From Eubacteriales bacterium (GTDB lineage: Bacteria; Bacillota; Clostridia; Oscillospirales; CAG-272), in the NCBI GenBank assembly GCA_045531105.1, contig JAZSDJ010000058.1, forward strand, positions 1-41,879: a DNA stretch of 41,879 nt. Reading direction: 5' to 3'. Below the pieces are notes generated by a model. The model did no database searches and had not been told where the DNA came from. It worked only from the letters and a program-made list of their open reading frames with translations. The position numbers and the translations under genes are program-made. Shown here piece by piece: positions 245-41,879 of the stretch; the stretch's first letter is position 1; each line of letters starts with the position of its first letter.

Positions 245-273
245 TTGACAATGTGGGAACAATGTGGTATAAT
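245..273 (+). promoter_or_regulatory. sigma70-type promoter (early cassette A)
   Basis: TTGACA 245-250, 17-nt spacer, TATAAT 268-273. Spacer contains ACAATGTGG twice. A/T-rich block upstream. Confidence 0.8.
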
Positions 274-324
274 ATAATCACAGGGTAAGGAAAGCCCACA
301 ATAAAGAAAGATGAGGTAATTAAA

Positions 325-2711: not shown

Positions 2712-2924
2712 ATGGCAGAAAAAATCAGATGTTCCGAATGTGGAAACATTATTGCGTATGAGAATGAGCCTATCAATGACAGGGGCGAAATTTCAATTAT
2801 GTGCAACAACCGCAAACCGAATGGAAAGCGGTGCAAAACGATAAACATTATTACCCGAAGATTATCGGGAGAAAGTGAGAAAGAAAATGCAAGACAACAT
2901 AATTTATTGCACGAAAGAGTATAG
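2712..2924 (+). CDS. zinc-ribbon protein, Mu Com-like
   Basis: MAEKIRCSECGNIIAYENE...ISIMCNNRKPNGKRCKTINII resembles the Com layout (IRC..C ... C...C). The 3' end overlaps the next gene. Confidence 0.4.
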   Translation: MAEKIRCSECGNIIAYENEPINDRGEISIMCNNRKPNGKRCKTINIITRRLSGESEKENARQHNLLHERV

Positions 2925-3648
2925 CATATTCAAAAAGTTATACGGCAATAGGGATATTTTAGACAGTCGAAAAAATACCATAAAAAGCAGTATTTTGGAA
3001 AATGGATATATAAGAAATCCTATTGTGGTAAATGAAAATCTTGAAATTATAGATGGTCAAGGAAGATTTGAGGCGTTGAAAGAACTCGGTCTGCCTATCG
3101 AATATGTCATAGCGCACGGAGCAGGGCATAAGGAATGTATCGCTCTAAATGCAAACCAAAAGAATTGGAAAACAAGCGATTACGTGAAAAGTTATGCTGA
3201 AATCGGTATAAAAGAATATGTGTTCGTTCACGAAATGTGTGAGATGTTCCCGAATTTAGACCAAGCAAATATTGTTGGCGTTTGTATGAAGGTGAACAAC
3301 GGTGGCGGTTCTGTTTCGAGATATATAAAAAGCGGAAAACTCAAATTATATCACGAAGAAACCATACCCGAAAGATTGAAACTCTATGAAAAGTTGCACA
3401 ATATTATATGCGGAGATGCTGATTTTGGAATACAAAGAGCATATGCAGGACTTGTGACTTTTTTGTATGAGTGCAAGGAAATTGACGAGGAAAAGGTGTT
3501 GAGGCACATACAAAAATATAAAGAATATATGTCTCCGTCTTTTAATATTAAACAAGCGTTGAAAAATATGGAATTTGTCTATAATAGATGTTCTAAAAAA
3601 TATGTGTATTTTTCTCCGTTGTTTGATGAATGGAATAAAGGGAATTAA
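2875..3648 (+). CDS. ParB/Srx-like N-terminal domain protein (nuclease or DNA-binding)
   Basis: NPIVVNENLEIIDGQGRFEALKELG fits the ParB-type DGxxR motif (close to DGQHR). GTG 2875, alternative ATG 2887. Confidence 0.6.
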   Translation: MRKKMQDNIIYCTKEYSIFKKLYGNRDILDSRKNTIKSSILENGYIRNPIVVNENLEIIDGQGRFEALKELGLPIEYVIAHGAGHKECIALNANQKNWKTSDYVKSYAEIGIKEYVFVHEMCEMFPNLDQANIVGVCMKVNNGGGSVSRYIKSGKLKLYHEETIPERLKLYEKLHNIICGDADFGIQRAYAGLVTFLYECKEIDEEKVLRHIQKYKEYMSPSFNIKQALKNMEFVYNRCSKKYVYFSPLFDEWNKGN

Positions 3649-3809: not shown

Positions 3810-4430
3810 ATGAAGCGTGAAGAAATCAAGGCAATTTTTGCCGATGCAACAGACGAACAGTTGAAAGCCGTTATGGATTTGAACGGTGCTGATGTTGAGA
3901 AAGCAAAGTCGAAAGTCACGGCACTTGAAACCGAATTGAAAGAAAAGAAAGCGGATTTTGACAAACTCAACAACGAATTTGAAGCACTAAAAACCGCAAA
4001 CGCAAGCGGTGAGGATTGGAAAGCAAAGTTTGAGGCTTTACAGGCTGAAAATGTCGCAAAGGAAAAACAGGCAGAAGCAGACCGCATACTTGCTGAAAAG
4101 AATGCAGACATTGAAAAGCGTTTTGCTGAATGTGTAGGCGATAAGAAGTTCTCGCACGATGCAATCAAAGCAGACTACCTCAAAAAGTTTGCAGATGCAC
4201 TTGAAAGTGGAGAATACAAGGGCAAGGGCGATGTTGACATCTTCCACGCATTAACCAAAGACGATGCCACCGCATTTACAGGCGTTACTGCCGTTAAGTT
4301 GCAGGGGGGCAGACCGATGGGAACAGGACACGGTTATTCCTCGGTCAAGGATATTATGAATAGCGATATGACCCGTGAGCAGAAGCGACAGGCTATCGCT
4401 GAAAATATTGCGAAAGGAAATATTGAATAA
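3810..4430 (+). CDS. capsid scaffolding protein (GP20-like)
   Basis: Charged coiled-coil protein (MKREEIKAIFADATDEQLKAVMDLNGADVEKAKSKVTALETELKEKK) directly upstream of the capsid gene. Confidence 0.7.
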   Translation: MKREEIKAIFADATDEQLKAVMDLNGADVEKAKSKVTALETELKEKKADFDKLNNEFEALKTANASGEDWKAKFEALQAENVAKEKQAEADRILAEKNADIEKRFAECVGDKKFSHDAIKADYLKKFADALESGEYKGKGDVDIFHALTKDDATAFTGVTAVKLQGGRPMGTGHGYSSVKDIMNSDMTREQKRQAIAENIAKGNIE

Positions 4431-24082: not shown

Positions 24083-24441
24083 AAGATTCGGGCAACAGAA
24101 GAACATTTGAAACAGGCGCACAAAGAGATTGTGCAGAGGGGCGTGGTCGTATGGATCTTCTTCCTTGGGCGGCAATTATGGAAGTTTCCAAGCATTGTGA
24201 GAACGGAGCGAAAAAGTACGGCGAACACAATGTGGACAAGGGAATACCAACATCGAGCCTTTGCGATAGCGCGGCGAGACACCTTGCGAAATACCTTGAT
24301 GGATGGGATGACGAGCCGCATCTATTGGCGGCGGCGTGGAATTTGCTGTGGGCGTTAGAAATGGAAATTAAGCACCCCGAATTGGTAAATACGCCGTGGA
24401 TGAAGAATGGGAGGAACAACGATGCAAGTGAGATTGATTAA
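24073..24441 (+). CDS. dNTP (dATP/dGTP-type) pyrophosphohydrolase-like protein (DUF5664 / dGTP_diPhyd_N-like)
   Basis: KDSGNRRTFETGAQRDCAEGRGRMDLLPW...ENGAKKYGEHNVDKGIP...DSAARHLAKYL...DEPHLLAAAWNLLWALE. Confidence 0.6.
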   Translation: MEIKDSGNRRTFETGAQRDCAEGRGRMDLLPWAAIMEVSKHCENGAKKYGEHNVDKGIPTSSLCDSAARHLAKYLDGWDDEPHLLAAAWNLLWALEMEIKHPELVNTPWMKNGRNNDASEID

Positions 24442-24928
24442 ATATCCATCTGCCGAAGACTGGATGTTTGCCAAATGTTGCACATTAGTAACTGTCGGCA
24501 AAGAAGTGGCAAAAGAACCGACACAAGAATGGAAACACAAACTCCTTGAAGCAAGGCATAGCCCTATTCGCGTTTTGCAATTCGCGTTCGAATTAGAGTT
24601 GCCATATTGGGTGAGTGTTCATCTGTGTAGGCATATCCACGCGCAGCCGTTTGTCAAGTCGCAGAGGAATGACAGACAGAGCGATTATGACCGCACAAAA
24701 GCACCGCAAGACGAAACCGTTAAAATGATTTGGTATATGAATGCCGAAGAATTGATGATTATTGCAAACAAAAGGCTTTGCAAACAGGCGAGCAAAGAAA
24801 CAAGGCAGATTGTGAAAACGATGTGTAATAAAGTTCTCGATGTTTGCCCCGAATTTGACGGCTTGCTCGTTCCGATGTGCCAATATCACGGCGGCAAGTG
24901 CCACGAAATTTTTCCTTGCAAATCCTAA
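24422..24928 (+). CDS. ThyX-like (flavin-dependent thymidylate synthase fold) protein, divergent and short
   Basis: ARHSPIRVLQFAFELE...SVHLCRHIHAQPFVKSQRNDRQS...KRLCKQASKETRQIV parallels ThyX (H.SP.EH..FtF.i.g.SR....QL.RHR..S..Q.SQRY...R.C..AQ.EIR). The RHR..S motif is altered. ATG 24422 after GGGAGG. Confidence 0.5.
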   Translation: MQVRLIKYPSAEDWMFAKCCTLVTVGKEVAKEPTQEWKHKLLEARHSPIRVLQFAFELELPYWVSVHLCRHIHAQPFVKSQRNDRQSDYDRTKAPQDETVKMIWYMNAEELMIIANKRLCKQASKETRQIVKTMCNKVLDVCPEFDGLLVPMCQYHGGKCHEIFPCKS

Positions 24929-25092: not shown

Positions 25093-25629
25093 ATGATGCT
25101 TGATGCTGTGCAAATAATTAAATCACAAATAACAATGAGTGATATGTTGGCAAAATATGGATTACCTGTAAAGCATAGAATCCCCTGCCCCTTGCATTGT
25201 GGCAAGGATGACAATTTTGAAATCAAAAGCAACCATTGGCGGTGCTATTCTCGGTGCGGAAGTGGAGACACAATATCTTTTGTGCAAAAATTTTTCGGCT
25301 TGTCTTTCCAAGATGCTTTGAAAAAGATTGATGCAGATTTCGGGCTGAATATTTATGGAGACCATTCGCTACAAGAATTAAGAAGTGCCTATTATATGCA
25401 ACAGGCTATACAGGCAAAGAGGGAACGAGAAAAACGGGAAAAGCAAAAAGCGGATGATGAATATTGGACGGCGTTTGATGAATGGAAGCGACTCGATGAT
25501 AACCGCAGGATTTATAGACCGAAATTACCCGATGGAGAACTGCATCCGCTTTTTGTGGAGAGTTTGCAAAAATTAGATTATCAAAAATATGTCCTTGATT
25601 GTTTGGATGAAAGGAGGATGTCACTATGA
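25093..25629 (+). CDS. CHC2 zinc-finger (DnaG-primase-type) protein
   Basis: IPCPLHCGKDDNFEIKSNHWRCYSRCGSGDTISFVQKFFG. Confidence 0.7.
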   Translation: MMLDAVQIIKSQITMSDMLAKYGLPVKHRIPCPLHCGKDDNFEIKSNHWRCYSRCGSGDTISFVQKFFGLSFQDALKKIDADFGLNIYGDHSLQELRSAYYMQQAIQAKREREKREKQKADDEYWTAFDEWKRLDDNRRIYRPKLPDGELHPLFVESLQKLDYQKYVLDCLDERRMSL

Positions 25630-27092
25630 ACGAAGAAGCTATTGCTTGTATGGAAATATCGGACTTGTTAAGGTCAGAAAACGTCTATATGATACAGGCT
25701 CAACCGATAGAGGTTAGGGAACAGTTAAAGGCTTTGTATTTTGCGAGAATGCAAGAGTTAAAAGCTGACAAGGAACTCAAAGAGCAAGTCAAGCGAATGT
25801 TCAAAGCATTTGACACGGCGGAGCGTGAAATGGCTGACGCTTACACAAAAGAAAATGCAAAAAAGAACTCGGAAATTTGCCTTGCCTTTGATGGAAAAGG
25901 TCAGCCGTTGTCAACTATTGACAATTTTCTTTCAATTCTCCGAAATGACAAAGAGTTTGAAAGCCTGCGTTTTAATCAACTTTCTTATTCACCCGAGCAT
26001 ATCGTTGACGGCAAATTGGAGCGTTGGCAGGATAAAGACGATAGCCGAGCAAGGTTTTATATTGAACAAAAATATAAAATCCACAACCGAGAAAAACTTG
26101 ATGATGCCCTGCGTATTCTCTTTGCGGAGCGTGAGTATCACCCCATAAAGCAGATTATTGAGGCGGTACAATGGGATGGTGTGCCGAGAATAACCGAGTT
26201 GTTTATCAAGTGGCTTAAATGCGAGGACACGCCATATATCCGAGAAGTTACACGGCTTGTATTTGCAGGAGGCATTCATCGTCTTTACAATGCAGGGTGC
26301 AAGTTCGATGATGTTGCCGTTCTGATTGGTACAAAGCAGGGCGAGGGAAAATCAACCTTTGCTCGTTGGCTTGCAATTAAGGATGAATTTTTCACAGAGG
26401 TTACGGAAATCGAAGGACAAAAAGGAATCGAGGCGATTGAGGGCGCGTGGGTGTGTGAGATTGCCGAGCTTTTGGCAGTTACAAAGTCAAAAGAGGTTGA
26501 GGCGGTTAAGTCATACATTACAAAACTCGTTGACCGTTACCGCAGACCCTTTGACCGCAGAACAACAGACCACAAAAGACAATGCGTTTTTATCGGTACA
26601 ACAAACAAAGAGCAGTTTTTGACCGACAAGACAGGAAACCGCCGTTGGTATCCTGTAAAGGTAAATTCAAGCGGTTATGATTTGCACGACCACAAAGAAG
26701 AAATCCAATCGGACATTTTGCAAGCGTGGGCAGAGGCTAAATATCTGTATGATAAAGGCGAGTTACAACCTTATGCGGACAGAAATCTTCTCGCAGAGAT
26801 AAGAGAACGGCAAGAAATGGCGGTTGAGGATGATTACCGTGTAGGAATGGTGACGGAATATGTATCAAGAAAAGACAAAGTCTGCATCCTTGAATTGTGG
26901 AAATATGCCCTCGACAACGAATGGAGCAAACCGACACGCCGAGAAAGCAACGAATTGACCTTGATTTTGCAGAGCATCGGTGGGTGGGAGCGAGGAAAGA
27001 TTGAGCGACATTCCGAGTTCGGAAATCAAATGTTTTGGGTAAAGAAAACGCCGAAGAAATTACCGCCGATTGATGATGATTTGCCCCTGTAA
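25626..27092 (+). CDS. VirE-family primase/helicase-like P-loop protein
   Basis: Walker A LIGTKQGEGKST. FIGTTN...TGNRRWYPVKV is typical of the virulence-associated protein E family. ATGA coupling to the zinc-finger gene. Confidence 0.7.
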   Translation: MNEEAIACMEISDLLRSENVYMIQAQPIEVREQLKALYFARMQELKADKELKEQVKRMFKAFDTAEREMADAYTKENAKKNSEICLAFDGKGQPLSTIDNFLSILRNDKEFESLRFNQLSYSPEHIVDGKLERWQDKDDSRARFYIEQKYKIHNREKLDDALRILFAEREYHPIKQIIEAVQWDGVPRITELFIKWLKCEDTPYIREVTRLVFAGGIHRLYNAGCKFDDVAVLIGTKQGEGKSTFARWLAIKDEFFTEVTEIEGQKGIEAIEGAWVCEIAELLAVTKSKEVEAVKSYITKLVDRYRRPFDRRTTDHKRQCVFIGTTNKEQFLTDKTGNRRWYPVKVNSSGYDLHDHKEEIQSDILQAWAEAKYLYDKGELQPYADRNLLAEIRERQEMAVEDDYRVGMVTEYVSRKDKVCILELWKYALDNEWSKPTRRESNELTLILQSIGGWERGKIERHSEFGNQMFWVKKTPKKLPPIDDDLPL

Positions 27093-27095
27093 AAT

Positions 27096-27342
27096 GTTAT
27101 TTACAAGGCTATTTACAGTTATTTACACAGTTATTTACACCCAAAAACCCTTATAAATAAAGGATTTTTTCAAATTTTGTAAACAGTAAATAATAAAATA
27201 AGCAAAAACTTTTACAAAAGCAATTTTACAATATATATTTTTTACTTATAGGGAAAATTGTTTAAGTTATTTACAAATTACATGGAAACCCTTGTAGCAT
27301 AAGGCTTTTGGGCGTAAATAGCGAAAAATTGAAGTTATTTAC
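27096..27342 (+). repeat. iteron array and inverted repeat, copy B (origin-like)
   Basis: G(T/C)TATTTAC at 27096, 27108, 27118 and 27130 (spacing 12/10/12). GTAAACA/GTAAATA at 27179-27192. GTTATTTAC at 27266-27274. Inverted pair GTAAATAGC 27314-27322 / GTTATTTAC 27334-27342 with an 11-nt spacer. Confidence 0.8.
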
Positions 27343-27390
27343 AAAAACAAAAAAATCTCAAAAATATTTCAAAAACTTTTCAAAAACTTA

Positions 27391-27419
27391 TTGACATTTT
27401 GATTTTTATGTGTTATAAT
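27391..27419 (+). promoter_or_regulatory. sigma70-type promoter (early cassette B)
   Basis: TTGACA 27391-27396, 17 nt, TATAAT 27414-27419. Downstream TATAATATAATCACAG is shared with the promoter at 245. Confidence 0.8.
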
Positions 27420-27468
27420 ATAATCACAGTAAGGGGGGGACAACCCAAGAAAGAAAGAGGTATTTGAA

Positions 27469-29188: not shown

Positions 29189-29224
29189 AAAGTAGACATG
29201 CATATACATTGCTCTGCAAAATGA

Positions 29225-29297
29225 TGCGGAGTCGCCAAGGGGTTAAGGCGTTAGACTTTGACTCTAACATTCGCAAGTTCGAATCTTGCCTCCGCAG
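29225..29297 (+). tRNA. tRNA-Gln (UUG)
   Basis: Manual cloverleaf: acceptor TGCGGAG/CTCCGCA (U1-A72), D arm GCC..GGC, anticodon stem TTAGA/TCTAA with loop CTTTGAC, T arm GCAAG-TTCGAAT-CTTGC, G73. Closely parallels E. coli tRNA-Gln. Confidence 0.85.
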
Positions 29298-29361
29298 GGG
29301 CAGAGCGATGGTGATGTCTCCTCCTTTCTTAAAGATTTGGCGGCTCGGAAAGACGAGAAGT

Positions 29362-29405
29362 GCCGACAGGGTGAAATTTAGACTTGTCGGCGCGAAATTT
29401 ATTTT
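29362..29405 (+). promoter_or_regulatory. hairpin with U-rich tail between tRNA-Gln and the endolysin gene (attenuator or processing site?)
   Basis: GCCGACA 29362-29368 pairs with TGTCGGC 29385-29391 (16-nt loop), then GCGAAATTTATTTT. Confidence 0.35.
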
Positions 29406-29421
29406 GAGGGAGCACAATAAT

Positions 29422-30066
29422 ATGACATCCCCTTTTTTCGGTGGCGAGTTCCGTTTAACCAGTAAATATGGCTATCGCCATTTAAATGGGCAAAATCAGT
29501 TCCATGGCGGGATTGACTTGGTAGGCACTTCTTCTAAGCAAATTTGCGCCGTAGCATCTGGCATTGTTGTTGTTTCTCAAATTGTGTCCGACAAGAGCAA
29601 CAGAACGTGGGAGTGGGGCAATTATATTGCTGTCGCGGGGGATGATGGGAACATTGTCTATTATTGCCATATGGCGGATAGAATTGCAAAAGTGGGCGAA
29701 AGAGTAAGCGTGGGAGACATCATTGGTGTCGAGGGCAATACGGGGTATTCTTTCGGGTCACATCTGCATCTTGAAGTGAGAAAAGATAATGTTGCTATAA
29801 ACGCCGCAGATTATATCGGAATCCCAAATGAGGTAGGGATTTACAAGGTTGAAGAAAAAAGCCTCGAGAAACGAGTGGAAACTCTTGAGCAAAGCGTGGG
29901 GGAAATATACAACGACCTTTCGGATGTACCCGAATGGGCAAAGCCTACGATTGACAAGCTAATTCGCTCGGAAGTTCTCAAAGGGGATGAAAACGGAAAG
30001 CTCGCTCTGTCTTATCAAATGATACGAATGTTAGTTGTGCTTGATAGATCGGGCGTATTTAAATAA
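29422..30066 (+). CDS. M23 metallopeptidase endolysin with SLH-like C-terminal domain
   Basis: HGGIDLVG (HxxxD) and GSHLHLEV (HxH). C-terminus VPEWAKPTIDKLIRSEVLKGDENGKL...MLVVLDRSGVF. ATG 29422 after GAGGGAG. The upstream part of the track ORF overlaps tRNA-Gln. Confidence 0.8.
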   Translation: MTSPFFGGEFRLTSKYGYRHLNGQNQFHGGIDLVGTSSKQICAVASGIVVVSQIVSDKSNRTWEWGNYIAVAGDDGNIVYYCHMADRIAKVGERVSVGDIIGVEGNTGYSFGSHLHLEVRKDNVAINAADYIGIPNEVGIYKVEEKSLEKRVETLEQSVGEIYNDLSDVPEWAKPTIDKLIRSEVLKGDENGKLALSYQMIRMLVVLDRSGVFK

Positions 30067-30068
30067 AT

Positions 30069-30143
30069 GGTGCTATCGCCAAGCGGTAAGGCAAGGCTCT
30101 GCAAAAGCCTTATTCCCAAGTTCAAATCTTGGTAGCACCTCCA
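30069..30143 (+). tRNA. tRNA-Cys (GCA), CCA encoded
   Basis: Acceptor GGTGCTA/TAGCACC, anticodon stem AGGCT/AGCCT with loop CTGCAAA, T arm CCAAG-TTCAAAT-CTTGG, U73 plus CCA. Confidence 0.85.
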
Positions 30144-30145
30144 AT

Positions 30146-30229
30146 GAGGGCGTGGTGGAATTGGCAGACACATCGGGTTTAAGCCCCGATGGATTATCCG
30201 TAAGAGTTCAAGTCTCTTTGCCCTCACCA
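30146..30229 (+). tRNA. tRNA-Leu (UAA), CCA encoded
   Basis: Acceptor GAGGGCG/TGCCCTC, D region TGGTGGAATTGGCAGACAC, anticodon loop TTTAAGC, long variable arm, T arm AAGAG-TTCAAGT-CTCTT, A73 plus CCA. Confidence 0.85.
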
Positions 30230-30233
30230 ATAT

Positions 30234-30317
30234 GTCAGCGTGTCGGAATTGGCAGACGAGGCGGTCTCAAAAACCGTTGCTTTATGCGTGTGAGTTCAAG
30301 TCTCACCGTTGACACCA
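30234..30317 (+). tRNA. tRNA-Leu (CAA), CCA encoded
   Basis: Acceptor GTCAGCG/CGTTGAC, anticodon loop CTCAAAA, long variable arm, T arm GTGAG-TTCAAGT-CTCAC, A73 plus CCA. Confidence 0.85.
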
Positions 30318-30361
30318 AATTTGATTATAAAAGGAGTTGATACAATATGCTAACCAAACAC

Positions 30362-37248: not shown

Positions 37249-37282
37249 ATACCGAGAACAGAAATGTTTTCGGTATTTTTTT
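37249..37282 (+). terminator. intrinsic terminator
   Basis: ATACCGA 37249-37255 pairs with TCGGTAT 37270-37276, then TTTTTT. Confidence 0.75.
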
Positions 37283-37312
37283 GAAAAAATTAAAAAAGTT
37301 TTGAAAAAGGTA

Positions 37313-37341
37313 TTGACAAAGTAGAAAAAAAGCAGTATAAT
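37313..37341 (+). promoter_or_regulatory. sigma70-type promoter (accessory cassette)
   Basis: TTGACA 37313-37318, 17 nt, TATAAT 37336-37341. Upstream AAAAGTTTTGAAAAAGGTA block. Confidence 0.8.
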
Positions 37342-37370
37342 AGTATCAGAAAGAAAGAGGGGTATTTGTT

Positions 37371-40032: not shown

Positions 40033-40315
40033 TATTTCAAAGTTAGAACAACAGGCAATGCAATTAGACCAAGAAACCATTGACAAAGCAGTTGAGGCAA
40101 TACAAAAGTTAGCGGAAGTTATTGTTGATGTGTGGAATAAGGTTGTCGAGGTTGTCAAAAATGTATTCAATGCGTTTTGGGAAGCATTAAGGGGATTTAT
40201 GAAGCAAGTAAACCCTAAAATATATCACCTTGCATATTATCATAAAAAACACAGGGTAAGAAAGAAAAATAAAAAGAGATTGTTTCTCTTATTTAGGCGG
40301 TGGTTAAATGGCTGA
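40025..40315 (+). CDS. hypothetical helical protein with basic tail
   Basis: ORF in the track. ATG 40025. Confidence 0.4.
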   Translation: MADISKLEQQAMQLDQETIDKAVEAIQKLAEVIVDVWNKVVEVVKNVFNAFWEALRGFMKQVNPKIYHLAYYHKKHRVRKKNKKRLFLLFRRWLNG

Positions 40316-41507
40316 ATTAGACAACATTTCAAAATTGCAGAGTTATGAGGAATACATCGCAAACAATATCACCGAATGGGAAGCGGAGAGCATAGCGAGA
40401 GTTTGCCGAAAGGTTGGCAAAATCGGGAGAATGAGCAAAAAAGAGCTTGAAAAGCTCGATGCCGACAAAGAGGCAAAAAAAGAGTGGGAGCGAATTGTGG
40501 CAGCTCTTGCGATTGCAACGGCATTGAATATCCGCACACTCAAAAAGGCGTATATAAGCGAGTTTGAGGCGTGGGAGAAGCAGAACGAGTATTTATACCA
40601 ATACAGAGGTAAAAAGCCGTTAGGCGTGAAAAATGGGGCTTTACAGAGCATTATAGAAAAGGCAGTAAAGCAGAACGGAAAAGAAATCCTAAACCTCACC
40701 AACACAAAGGCTCTTTCAGTGCTTGATAGTAACGGAAATCCGATCCGTTTTCAAGATGCGATTTACAAGTCATTCGGAGATGCCGTCAAGACTGTTACAG
40801 AGGGCAAGGCTGATTTTTATACAAAGATGCGACAGACGGTGCAAAATCTCGGTGGCGGTGGTTGCCGTGTAAACTATGGCGAGGGCATTACAAGGCGTTT
40901 AGATACGGTTGTAAGGCAGAATATGTTGTATGGTATCAAACAGGCGAATGGAGAATATAATGAGCGTATAGGCGAAGAAATCGGTGCTACGGGCTATGAA
41001 ATAGATTATCATTCAAATTCACGCCCCACTCACCGCTTTATGCAGGGAAGACAGTTTTGCATCGGAGAGTCAAAAACAATCAATGGAAAGCATTTTAACG
41101 GAATGGAAGATACAAGGGATGCCGAAAGCGGAAAGAACGTAACCGAGAGTTTGCAAGACTATGGATGCCGCCACTATAAGACCGCTATTATTTGTGGCGT
41201 TTCCGAACCGAGATATTCCGCAGAGGAATTGAGGCGGTTTGATGAGCAGGACAAACGGCTTTACAAGATCGGAAACATCGAAAAGGACGGCTACGGTTGG
41301 AGTCAGTCGATGCGAGTTTGCGAAACCGAAATCCGCAGATGCAAAGATGAGATCAATGCGCTCAAAGCGTTCGGAAATAGCGAAGCGGAGATAAAGGCAC
41401 TCCGACAGCGTATCAAGACCGTTCGTGCAAAGTACAATGAGATTGCAGAAATCACAGGCATCAGTCAAGAGCCAAAGCGAATGAGTGTACCGAGGGTAAA
41501 CAAATGA
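40308..41507 (+). CDS. head morphogenesis protein (SPP1 gp7 / Mu F-like minor capsid protein)
   Basis: GYEIDYHSNSRPTHRFMQGRQF core motif. 399 aa. Confidence 0.75.
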   Translation: MAELDNISKLQSYEEYIANNITEWEAESIARVCRKVGKIGRMSKKELEKLDADKEAKKEWERIVAALAIATALNIRTLKKAYISEFEAWEKQNEYLYQYRGKKPLGVKNGALQSIIEKAVKQNGKEILNLTNTKALSVLDSNGNPIRFQDAIYKSFGDAVKTVTEGKADFYTKMRQTVQNLGGGGCRVNYGEGITRRLDTVVRQNMLYGIKQANGEYNERIGEEIGATGYEIDYHSNSRPTHRFMQGRQFCIGESKTINGKHFNGMEDTRDAESGKNVTESLQDYGCRHYKTAIICGVSEPRYSAEELRRFDEQDKRLYKIGNIEKDGYGWSQSMRVCETEIRRCKDEINALKAFGNSEAEIKALRQRIKTVRAKYNEIAEITGISQEPKRMSVPRVNK

Positions 41508-41701: not shown

Positions 41702-41732
41702 CCCTGCCCTAAAAAGCAGGGTTTTTTCTTTT
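41702..41732 (+). terminator. intrinsic terminator
   Basis: CCCTGC 41702-41707 pairs with GCAGGG 41716-41721, then TTTTTTCTTTT. Confidence 0.8.
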
Positions 41733-41734
41733 CT

Positions 41735-41793
41735 GTAAATAACATTTTTCAGCTATTTACGGCTATTTACAAAGTTATTTATCCAATATTTAC
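41735..41793 (+). repeat. iteron array, copy A (part left of the window junction)
   Basis: GTAAATAAC 41735-41743 (inverted). GCTATTTAC at 41752 and 41762. GTTATTTAT at 41774. ATATTTAC 41786-41793. Spacing is 10-12 nt. Confidence 0.75.
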
Positions 41794-41864
41794 CAATTTT
41801 ATTGTGCAATATATACAAAGAATAATACTATATAATATAGAATCTTTGTTATAAATATATACAA

Positions 41865-41879
41865 AATGATGATATTTTG
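41865..41879. repeat. terminal direct repeat, identical to 1-15
   Basis: AATGATGATATTTTG. Confidence 0.9.

Follow-up and report, generated by a model that had tools for sequence, protein, structure and literature searches.

Two iteron arrays in a circular phage genome from gut Clostridia, probable sites of a VapE-type SF3 helicase and candidate replication origins

Two intergenic blocks of a circular phage genome carry the same arrangement of short direct and inverted repeats around an AT-rich tract. Sequence comparison makes it probable that both are arrays of iterons for a helicase which the phage itself encodes. This VapE-type SF3 enzyme would be a self-loading initiator-helicase like SaPI Rep1, and the best reading of the two arrays is that they are replication origins. 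One of them, array A, immediately follows the helicase gene; the other, array B, interrupts the late genes. The preliminary description of this DNA had already proposed an origin from the combination of iterons, an AT-rich tract and an adjoining initiator/helicase gene, and the comparison with relatives supports that proposal because the array travels with the VapE gene, because the repeats co-vary with the predicted DNA-binding domain of the helicase, and because the helicase is homologous to Rep1.

Two arrays of one layout

The window, by which we mean the whole stretch of DNA analysed (41,879 nucleotides), contains a circular phage genome of 41,864 bp with a 15-nt terminal overlap (41865-41879 repeats 1-15). 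It encodes the terminase, portal, major head protein, scaffold and tape measure, as well as the recombination-dependent restart proteins Sak4, an SSB-like protein and an exonuclease. All genes lie on one coding strand; the GC skew is monotonic for that reason, and it neither supports nor places any origin. An Rfam scan matched four tRNAs, none of them in the arrays or their leaders.

The repeats are far from random. GYTATTTAC occurs 13 times in the window, against 0.74 expected and in excess of all of 100 shuffles (0/100 reached 13), and all 13 exact copies are confined to the two intergenic blocks. Its shorter core TATTTAC is found eight times in the 258 bp of block A, nine times in the 342 bp of block B and six times in the remaining 41.3 kb. 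Block A (27093-27350) lies immediately 3' of the helicase gene, whose stop codon occupies 27090-27092. The preliminary description had listed here four direct G(T/C)TATTTAC repeats starting 4 nt past that stop codon at 12/10/12 spacing, followed by opposite GTAAA(C/T)A copies, an AT-rich stretch, an extra iteron, an inverted pair separated by N11 and a sigma70 promoter, and each of these elements is present. The features in and around array A are:

25093-25629, plus strand: small CHC2 zinc-ribbon protein of 178 aa, similar to the zinc-binding domain of DnaG; its gene precedes that of the helicase, in the 'pri' position
25626-27092, plus strand: VapE-type SF3 helicase of 488 aa (Pfam VapE-like_dom, E 1.6e-63)
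26811-27050, plus strand: C-terminal winged-helix domain of the helicase (residues 396-475), predicted iteron reader; Arg461 codon at 27006-27008
27096-27138, plus strand: left arm of array A, four direct GYTATTTAC iterons, 12/10/12 from start to start: GTTATTTAC at 27096-27104, GCTATTTAC at 27108-27116, GTTATTTAC at 27118-27126 and GTTATTTAC at 27130-27138
27143-27170, plus strand: conserved box AAAAACCCTTATAAATAAAGGATTTTTT, a weak hairpin (-3.3 kcal/mol, z -1.4)
27179-27194, minus strand: two inverted iterons, GTAAACA/GTAAATAAT (TGTTTAC and ATTATTTAC on the minus strand)
27195-27265: AT-rich, easily melted tract, putative DNA-unwinding element, with degenerate TTTAC at 27211, 27225 and 27241 and the AT-rich AATTTTACAATATATATTTTTTAC at 27222-27245
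27266-27342: right arm of array A, with a direct iteron GTTATTTAC at 27266-27274 (plus), a second copy of the conserved box at 27285-27312, and an end pair of GTAAATAGC at 27314-27322 (minus), 11 nt, and GTTATTTAC at 27334-27342 (plus)
27344-27419, plus strand: A-tract UP element and TTGACA-17-TATAAT promoter (27391-27419; 12/12 match, upstream TG), separate from the putative origin cassette
30404: small terminase gene

Array A contains seven exact and about five degenerate sites, in the orientation ++++ -- (AT-rich tract) + - +. Two of its internal elements were considered as terminators and rejected: these 'hairpins' fold no better than shuffled sequence and only their left halves are conserved in relatives (the left half of the box is kept in relatives of every iteron class), so that they are better called a conserved sequence box. 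DnaA boxes were rejected as well. TTATTTACA has two mismatches to the TTATCCACA box, and the repeat varies by helicase lineage while the inferred hosts remain Clostridia, which speaks against this reading.

The preliminary description held up for array A but overlooked a second array at the window ends. Six exact GYTATTTAC copies lie there (at 112, 160, 180, 41735, 41752 and 41762) and, since the window is a circular assembly, they form one array (block B, 41735-41879 and 1-190). Block B follows the minor-capsid gene, 14.6 kb from array A; it has the layout of block A, and alignment identifies the two arrays as paralogous. Its surroundings are:

40308-41507: Phage_min_cap2 minor-capsid gene, upstream of block B
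41702-41727, plus strand: intrinsic terminator closing the operon upstream of array B (-10.7 kcal/mol, z -3.1, then a T-run)
41735-41793: left arm of array B, with an inverted iteron at 41735-41743 and direct ones at 41752, 41762, 41774 (GTTATTTAT) and 41785 (AATATTTAC)
41794-41879: AT-rich tract of array B, resuming at window position 16
16-188: right part of array B, with inverted iterons at 24-39, TTTAC at 56-60, a plus iteron at 112-120, a box copy at about 128-156, a minus iteron at 160-168 and a plus iteron at 180-188
246-274, plus strand: TTGACA-17-TATAAT promoter downstream of array B
1347-1490: ribbon-helix-helix (RHH) protein
2875-3648: ParB-like protein
3810: scaffold gene, downstream of block B, the promoter and small genes

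The least stable 60-bp stretch of the whole genome (41808-41867) falls within array B and the third least stable (27222-27281) within array A. The promoters downstream of the two arrays have a common leader, ATAATCACAG-GTAAGG. An exact-sequence look-up of the 63-aa protein encoded upstream of block B returned no record.

The helicase and its array in related phages

The array is linked to the VapE-type helicase gene, not to the promoter. In a set of some 25 metagenomic relatives, VapE helicase genes with readable 3' sequence are almost always directly followed by an array of the same layout, and the position immediately downstream of the gene is the same in about 22 relatives. The orientation pattern runs from three to five direct iterons through two inverted and one or two direct ones to an inverted plus direct pair; the two inverted iterons have the same position and orientation in all relatives. 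Three distant VapE relatives (L023-L025, 61-74% identity) lack an array directly after the helicase gene; one further relative, L055, has unreadable 3' sequence at a contig end, and another, L021, is seemingly chimeric. The repeat itself changes in concert from lineage to lineage (TATTTAC, TATTTAT, TAGTAAC, TGGTAAC, TAGTTAC, TAATAAC and GTCTAYA) on a constant layout. In two lineages array B carries its own genome's iteron: TATTTAC in both arrays of the window, TAGTAAC in both arrays of JAZOCZ010000138.1 (L049/L058). It is absent from two VapE-type relatives, L059 and L062, the latter with a near-identical helicase C-terminal domain, and on this ground we regard array B as accessory and not essential. 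In the sister phages L016 and L028 a Cch-like helicase replaces the VapE one and is followed by an array of its own, with the repeats TTGTAAAC / CAGTTTACA; the DUF927-type relative L029 has no obvious array right after its helicase gene.

The helicase belongs to a large group, with more than 4000 homologues at E ≤ 1e-30 and 120 at 77% identity or more. Among deposited phage genomes none of 740 helicase matches reaches 60% identity, and a DNA search returned short helicase-core matches only. A helicase search in IMG/VR found no relatives, and DNA-pattern scans of the same resource (iteron triplet, inverted pair, block B promoter) returned only unrelated tandem repeats and generic promoter look-alikes.

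The helicase is homologous to SaPI1 Rep1, with matches to PDB 7PDS at E 1.3e-48 to 5e-53, the former covering residues 133-415. This structure is Rep1 bound to DNA, deposited under the title 'PriRep1 with dsDNA'. We modelled the C-terminal domain alone because the AF2 model of the full-length helicase was poor (pLDDT 50). The model of residues 396-488 (pLDDT 82) has the winged-helix topology H-S-H-H-S-S, and 7PDS superposes on it best, through its own C-terminal domain, with an rmsd of 1.4-1.9 Å over about 61 columns and a weak Foldseek E (0.035-0.11; 5.8e-3 or higher in the fold searches overall). Within this domain one residue follows the last base of the repeat. In a sample of 17 loci, which are related sequences, position 461 is Arg in all nine with TTTAC and His, Tyr or Lys in all eight with TTTAT; of about 500 aligned columns only 414 and 461 separate the two classes, and label shuffles did as well in 4 of 5000 cases. 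By identity of the core helicase the two classes intermingle; the window, for instance, is 95-96% identical to four of the TTTAT class but only 85-88% to five of the TTTAC class. Residue 461 is located in the wing strand of the modelled winged helix, and in the GTAAC iteron classes the wing has changed wholesale. The C-terminal winged helix is therefore predicted, from covariation and modelling, to be the iteron reader, with Arg461 tracking the last repeat base.

Two other proteins were considered as readers and rejected. The pri-like CHC2 protein has no column that discriminates the iteron classes and shows no co-variation with them. The RHH protein is identical at 44 of 47 positions in L016, despite the different iterons there. 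Profile matches place the CHC2 protein close to the zinc-binding part of DnaG (Pfam Zn_ribbon_DnaG, E 1.5e-8; an NCBIfam dnaG match restricted to the N-terminal domain), and they detected no catalytic Toprim domain in its 178 aa.

These elements suggest a mechanism in which the C-terminal winged helix would bind the 9-bp iterons, oppositely oriented on both flanks of the AT-rich tract, so that hexamers might form on each flank and melt the tract (about 27195-27265 in array A). The helicase would then unwind outward, and the rest of the replisome would come from the host polymerase and from the zinc-ribbon protein, a host primase or both. Array A would be the primary origin, part of one mobile cassette made of the pri-like gene, rep and ori. 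Array B, at the position of SPP1 oriR, would be bound by this helicase too. Replication might also start there, or the bound protein might form a fork barrier and so set off the switch to concatemer synthesis.

Competing readings of the repeats

Arrays of short repeats may serve other purposes, and the relatives allow these to be weighed. The preliminary description had recovered the promoter after array A and suggested that the repeats might also act as its operators. Taken further, they could be operators or activator sites, for a phage regulator or for the helicase, that serve the two strong promoters at 27391 and 246 and have no role in initiation. A consensus promoter with the common leader does follow the end of each array at a distance of 50-70 bp, and an initiator bound to the promoter-proximal iterons could plausibly alter transcription as a side effect. 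However, promoter and repeats come apart in both directions. In L017 and L037, which have a DnaB-type helicase, the stop codon is directly followed by the identical promoter with zero repeats, and the array-B-type promoter stands without iterons in L016, L028, L029, L037 and L062; conversely, the arrays of L030 and L045-L049 have no promoter and adjoin the ribosome-binding site of the next gene. Moreover, most of the sites are 100-300 bp away from the -35 element, on its upstream side, and the candidate regulator, the RHH protein, is unchanged where the iterons differ. These loci give the operator idea no support, and we consider a purely transcriptional role improbable. Packaging sites (pac or cosB-like) for the small terminase subunit would fit the habit of small terminases to bind arrays of short repeats, and the gene of this subunit is about 3 kb downstream of array A. 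Yet it is always the helicase gene that the array adjoins, not the terminase gene, the Pfam labels of the small terminase vary among relatives (Terminase_2, GP3_package or none), and the sole protein feature that tracks the iteron class is the helicase C-terminal domain, which makes packaging very unlikely. Slighter again is the chance that the arrays are centromere-like partition sites of a plasmid-like prophage, bound by the ParB-like protein encoded about 2.7 kb downstream of array B: the Pfam ParB_N match of this protein is far under threshold, ParA was not found among the scanned ORFs, and arrays are present in relatives with no separate ParB-like gene at the sampled loci, their sole ParB-related match being a faint ParB_N within the L018 methyltransferase. 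Here too, the iteron class goes with the helicase.

The reading of the arrays as helicase-bound origins leaves room for a narrower alternative, to which we give a substantial minority chance: array A might be the sole origin and array B a non-initiating site, either, on the model of SPP1 oriR, a fork barrier that triggers the change from theta to sigma replication or, on the model of P4 crr, a partner in cis or a site for handcuffing. That array B keeps its own genome's iteron in two lineages and yet is missing from L062 and L059 would suit such a role, as would its location at the oriR position and the restart proteins Sak4, SSB-like protein and exonuclease encoded by the phage. Against it, array B lacks no part of the origin layout, its AT tract is the least stable of the genome, and nothing in its sequence marks it as non-initiating. 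A more speculative extension, which we hold to be rather unlikely as a whole, is a modular system in which an SF3 initiator-helicase works with two cognate arrays, residue 461 sets the recognition of the last iteron base, and the optional second array times the switch from circle to concatemer as a fork barrier or handcuffing partner. We know of no described role of a second array in timing this switch for Rep/VapE-type helicases.

If the origin reading is right, origins can be assigned from sequence in a large family of uncultured Clostridia phages of gut and rumen, and a SaPI Rep1-type cassette of helicase plus own origin is present in a full tailed phage, where the VapE cassette is swapped wholesale for Cch-like or DnaB-type modules. 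The seven variants of the iteron share one scaffold, and one residue follows one base among them, which makes them a ready-made test set for how winged-helix initiators read their sites. The optional second array may help to address the question of oriR, known from SPP1, in a system with another kind of initiator.

Comparison with known replicons

In SaPI replicons of the Rep1 type, pri precedes rep and the ori comes directly after it; 6-12 short iterons flank an AT-rich centre of the ori, those on one side oriented opposite to those on the other, and a winged helix in the C-terminal domain of Rep reads them (PMC9371898); the type is represented by PDB 7PDS and by Ubeda et al. 2007, as cited in PMC9371898. 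The phage resembles them in its homologous helicase (E 1e-48) with a C-terminal winged helix, as modelled here, in the array immediately downstream of rep, in iterons that flank an AT-rich centre in opposite orientations, in the small gene in the pri position, and in iterons that are lineage-specific; array A falls within the range of 6-12 iterons, with at least two per side in opposite orientation. It differs in that 1) it is a complete tailed phage of gut Clostridia, whereas SaPIs are satellite islands; 2) its iterons are 9 bp long, against the 5-6 bp reported for SaPIs; 3) it has a second array 14.6 kb off; 4) its upstream protein shows the DnaG-type zinc-binding domain only; and 5) the identity of its helicase to Rep1 is low beyond the ATPase core. 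A satellite (phage-inducible chromosomal island) has no virion structural genes of its own and depends on a helper. This genome encodes its own virion structural genes, and it is thus a complete phage with a SaPI-like replicon, not an island.

The existence of two arrays recalls SPP1, whose oriL and oriR are about 13 kb apart and bound by one initiator, oriR breaking up the late genes in the segment where three morons, genes 8-10, are located (PMC6316719). In both phages two direct-repeat arrays with an AT-rich unwinding element lie 13-15 kb apart on a circular map and match one initiator; the first is in the replication module and the second splits the late morphogenesis genes, in a stretch that has transcription signals at both ends and contains small moron-type genes; and all genes are on one coding strand. 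The same dual-array arrangement is found in the window and in L049/L058. Phage_min_cap2 is the family of SPP1 gp7, and in SPP1 the segment of genes 8-10 is located between gene 7 and the scaffold gene. The resemblance is in layout only: SPP1 uses the origin-binding protein gp38, the loader gp39 and the DnaB-type gp40, with oriL inside gene 38, whereas here a CHC2 protein and a single SF3 helicase, the presumed initiator, accompany an intergenic array.

The alpha protein of satellite phage P4 is an SF3-type helicase with its own primase domain and a C-terminal winged-helix origin-binding domain, and its iterons form two separated clusters, ori and crr, which are 4.5 kb apart and both required. 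By layout and domain type, the likeness lies in a winged-helix SF3 helicase, here the predicted reader, combined with two iteron clusters per replicon. The Cch helicase of SCCmec (DUF927 + HTH_56) belongs to another, MCM-like family, and it is the counterpart of the Cch-like helicases of L016 and L028, which also precede an array. The arrays are a clear new example of a known design and not a new kind of element, because they join the SaPI-like build of primase, helicase and origin to a second matching copy as in SPP1.

Two arrays on a circular phage genome

The preliminary description placed an origin-like iteron array (GYTATTTAC-type repeats) at 27093-27420, after the VapE-type helicase gene (25626-27092, + strand). 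This array stands, and reinspection of the sequence found every element listed for it at its coordinates:

27090-27092, +, helicase stop codon, iteron 1 beginning 4 nt past it
27096, 27108, 27118, 27130 (starts), four direct G(T/C)TATTTAC copies, spacing 12/10/12
27179-27194, inverted GTAAACA/GTAAATAAT
27222-27245, AT-rich AATTTTACAATATATATTTTTTAC
27266, additional GTTATTTAC copy
27314-27342, GTAAATAGC-N11-GTTATTTAC pair
27391-27419, TTGACA-17-TATAAT promoter, 12/12 match, with upstream TG

The picture of a single array had to be given up. Positions 1-15 of the window are identical to 41865-41879, a terminal overlap that makes the window a circular assembly and thus a complete phage genome of 41,864 bp. 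Six of the 13 GYTATTTAC copies lie at the two ends and, the genome being circular, belong to one second array, not visible in the preliminary reading (array B, 41735-41879 joined to 16-188). The 13 matches compare with 0.74 expected, a count reached in 0 of 100 shuffles, and the two blocks have 8 and 9 copies of TATTTAC vs 6 in the remaining 41.3 kb.

Array B and array A (27093-27350) correspond block by block in alignment: both have four direct iterons followed by an AT-rich spacer and TTGTAAAYAGTAAATAATAAA, continue with CTTTTACAA, further AT-rich DNA and GTTATTTACAA, and end with a conserved box, GGCGTAAATARC, an 11-nt spacer and AGTTATTTACA. In each case an A-tract/UP element comes next, then a consensus promoter and a leader common to both. 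By duplex stability, the least stable 60 bp of the genome (41808-41867) lie inside B and the third least stable (27222-27281) inside A; the AT-rich tracts of both behave as expected of unwinding elements. The box, AAAAACCCTTATAWAT(..AAGGGTTTT), stands after the direct iterons and again ahead of the inverted and direct pair:

27143-27170, window
27285-27312, window
~128-156, window
4388-4420, related phage locus L018
6790-6815, related phage locus L058

Its left half is kept in every iteron class, but its predicted fold is no more stable than that of shuffled sequence; possible roles are host-factor binding, priming or weak termination. The promoter design, an A-tract 'ttttcaaaaac' UP element plus TTGACA-17-TATAAT, exists in four copies (204-276, 20999-21071, 27350-27422 and 37272-37344), and the promoters at 246 and 27391 share a transcribed leader, ATAATCACAG(G)GTAAGG, kept in relatives regardless of the replication module.

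All predicted genes are on the + strand, and the arrays are flanked by:

5' of array A, replication/recombination module: Sak4-like annealing protein, SSB-like protein, GIY-YIG endonuclease, dNTP pyrophosphohydrolase, ThyX fragment, 178-aa CHC2 zinc-ribbon protein, 488-aa VapE-type helicase
3' of array A: small genes, four tRNAs, terminase genes, portal gene
5' of array B: minor-capsid gene (Phage_min_cap2), small membrane-protein gene, strong terminator
3' of array B: promoter, small moron-like genes (Lar-like, RHH, RNA ligase, ParB-like), scaffold and major head genes

The endonuclease gene, located within the replication module, and the ThyX-like ORF lie at 23294-23881 and 24407-24928; the ThyX-like ORF matches the Thy1 profile in its C-terminal part only and may be split or a remnant. 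The tRNA cluster (29225-30317; Gln-TTG, Cys-GCA, Leu-TAA, Leu-CAA) separates small early-type genes from the terminase genes; the long ORF calls overlapping it (29209-30066, 30035-30340) are probably spurious. The helicase ends in PPIDDDLPL (27066-27089), resembling the acidic C-terminal tip of bacterial SSB, and the phage SSB-like protein in SLDDALPF (23160-23180). This helicase tail is variable in relatives (DDDFPF, SDLPF, DEIPF) and missing from some (L018, L036, L038); host replisome proteins could dock on it.

Association of the array with the helicase

No close deposited phage was found: the DNA search returned short matches to the helicase core only, with protein identity <60%. Metagenomes yielded a large family, with 120 clusters for the helicase (77-98% identity) and 120 for the portal (>=88%); for 20 loci the source is a gut MAG, labelled Clostridia, Oscillospiraceae, Acutalibacteraceae or Lachnospiraceae. 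Three unrelated replication modules occur beside near-identical portals: VapE-type (VapE/Rep1-like), DUF927+HTH_56 (Cch-like) and DnaB+Toprim. The portals of L016, L017, L018, L028, L029, L030, L036 and L037 are 89-95% identical, with the modules at one place 5' of the portal gene. These phages are mosaics, a clear case of swapped replication modules.

Where downstream sequence was readable, almost all VapE-type helicases are directly followed by an array with the window's orientation pattern (L055 stops at a contig edge and L021 looks chimeric); none was found after the helicase in three more distant VapE relatives (L023-L025, 61-74% identity). In the DnaB-type loci L017 and L037 the helicase stop codon is directly followed by UP element, promoter and leader, as in window 27352-27440, without repeats; several VapE phages (L030, L045-L049) have the array without the promoter; the Cch-like L016 and L028 keep the promoter with a different repeat, TTGTAAAC/CAGTTTACA; and the position of array B in L016, L028, L029, L037 and L062 holds terminator and promoter only. 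These five outcomes make the array part of the helicase cassette and not of the promoter. In L037 the leader between conserved promoter and first gene carries a G+C-rich insert of ~170 nt (2940-3105), absent in the window and L017, which might encode a structured RNA or represent a small mobile element.

Repeat classes and their candidate reader

Across lineages the array layout is constant and the repeat sequence changes:

Repeat carried by each locus
TATTTAC: window, L019, L040, L042-L046, L051, L062
TATTTAT: L018/L039, L020, L022, L036, L038, L047, L050, L059
TAGTAAC: L041, L048, L049, L053
TGGTAAC: L054
TAGTTAC: L030
TAATAAC: L052
GTCTAYA: L056

One NCBI contig, from which both L049 and L058 were taken, resembles the window in carrying two arrays, both with TAGTAAC, and its second array, again matching the window, follows a minor-capsid gene and terminator. 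In two specificity lineages both arrays carry the repeat of their own genome, which speaks for a single co-evolving protein as the reader of both. Array B is absent in two VapE-type relatives, L062 and L059, one (L062) with a near-identical helicase C-terminal domain, and is therefore accessory; it may serve as a second origin, stall forks as a barrier, or act as a partner in cis. Unrelated to the iterons, three direct AGTTGGCAA repeats at ~21-nt spacing precede another consensus promoter in L058 (2880-2960), possibly as the site of a regulator.

Conservation of the helicase is 90-100% in the core; the N-terminal ~100 and C-terminal ~95 residues are variable. When nine TTTAC loci are compared with eight TTTAT loci, only two of ~500 alignment columns share no residue between the classes: position 414, which is variable in general, and position 461, where every TTTAC locus has Arg and every TTTAT locus has His, Tyr or Lys. 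Label shuffling equalled this separation in 4 of 5000 trials. Since the classes are interleaved in core identity (window vs four TTTAT loci 95-96%, vs five TTTAC loci 85-88%), the association does not reflect one inherited split. In GTAAC-type lineages the entire segment around 461 is exchanged (KPSRS..YGLQRFW). Residues 396-488 are confidently predicted as a winged helix (pLDDT 82), with residue 461 close to the tip, in the first strand of the wing; the best superposition of the modelled domain is the C-terminal domain of PDB entry 7PDS (rmsd 1.4-1.9 A, 21-23% identity, weak E-values). An Arg facing a G:C pair is a common readout, and we infer its use at 461.

Two other proteins were considered as readers and rejected. 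In the CHC2 zinc-ribbon protein (25093-25629; homologues in L018-L059) no column separates the classes, and its two zinc-finger versions (R--IPCPLHxGKxxNFE and RKGFxCCPFHNEKTPSM) are distributed independently of both iteron class and helicase identity; a primase catalytic domain was looked for in it and none detected, leaving the zinc-binding domain alone. The RHH protein (1347-1490) is identical at 44 of 47 positions in L016, whose repeats differ.

Interpretation and known systems

The arrays are quite probably binding sites for the helicase C-terminal domain that serve replication initiation, with array A as the primary origin. The preliminary description had allowed that the sites act as operators for the adjacent promoter; array and promoter are separable, however (L017/L037 vs L030/L045-L049), and we consider it unlikely that the repeats are promoter operators. 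That the arrays are packaging sites, or partition sites, is more improbable still.

Among solved structures the helicase matched one, 7PDS (E 1e-48 to 5e-53), the DNA-bound Rep1 of the staphylococcal pathogenicity island SaPI1 (PMC9371898). In SaPI replicons the primase gene lies 5' of rep and the origin directly 3' of it, with six to twelve short iterons flanking an AT-rich centre, at least two per side in opposite orientation; the iterons are recognised by the winged helix of the C-terminal domain, and helicase loading requires no separate loader (PMC9371898). Every sequence-level feature of this replicon is present in the window with two exceptions: the upstream protein shows a zinc-binding domain only, and the window is a complete phage, not a satellite.

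The two-array arrangement resembles that of SPP1, where oriL lies within the replication module and oriR ~13 kb off, where the late genes are interrupted by a segment with three moron genes (8-10) and transcription signals on either side; the initiator gp38 binds both, and oriR-bound gp38 has been proposed to stall the fork and so switch replication to concatemer synthesis (PMC6316719). Array B occupies a comparable place, 14.6 kb from A, and the window also encodes Sak4, SSB-like and exonuclease proteins such as the fork-stall model employs. P4 ori/crr is a further analogue. As far as sequence tells, the design is a known one, newly met in uncultured Clostridia phages: a rep-ori cassette of the SaPI Rep1 type in a two-array layout like that of SPP1. 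What would go beyond the textbook case is a natural series of seven predicted iteron specificities on one scaffold, one residue apparently associated with one base, and an optional second array for a predicted self-loading SF3 helicase.
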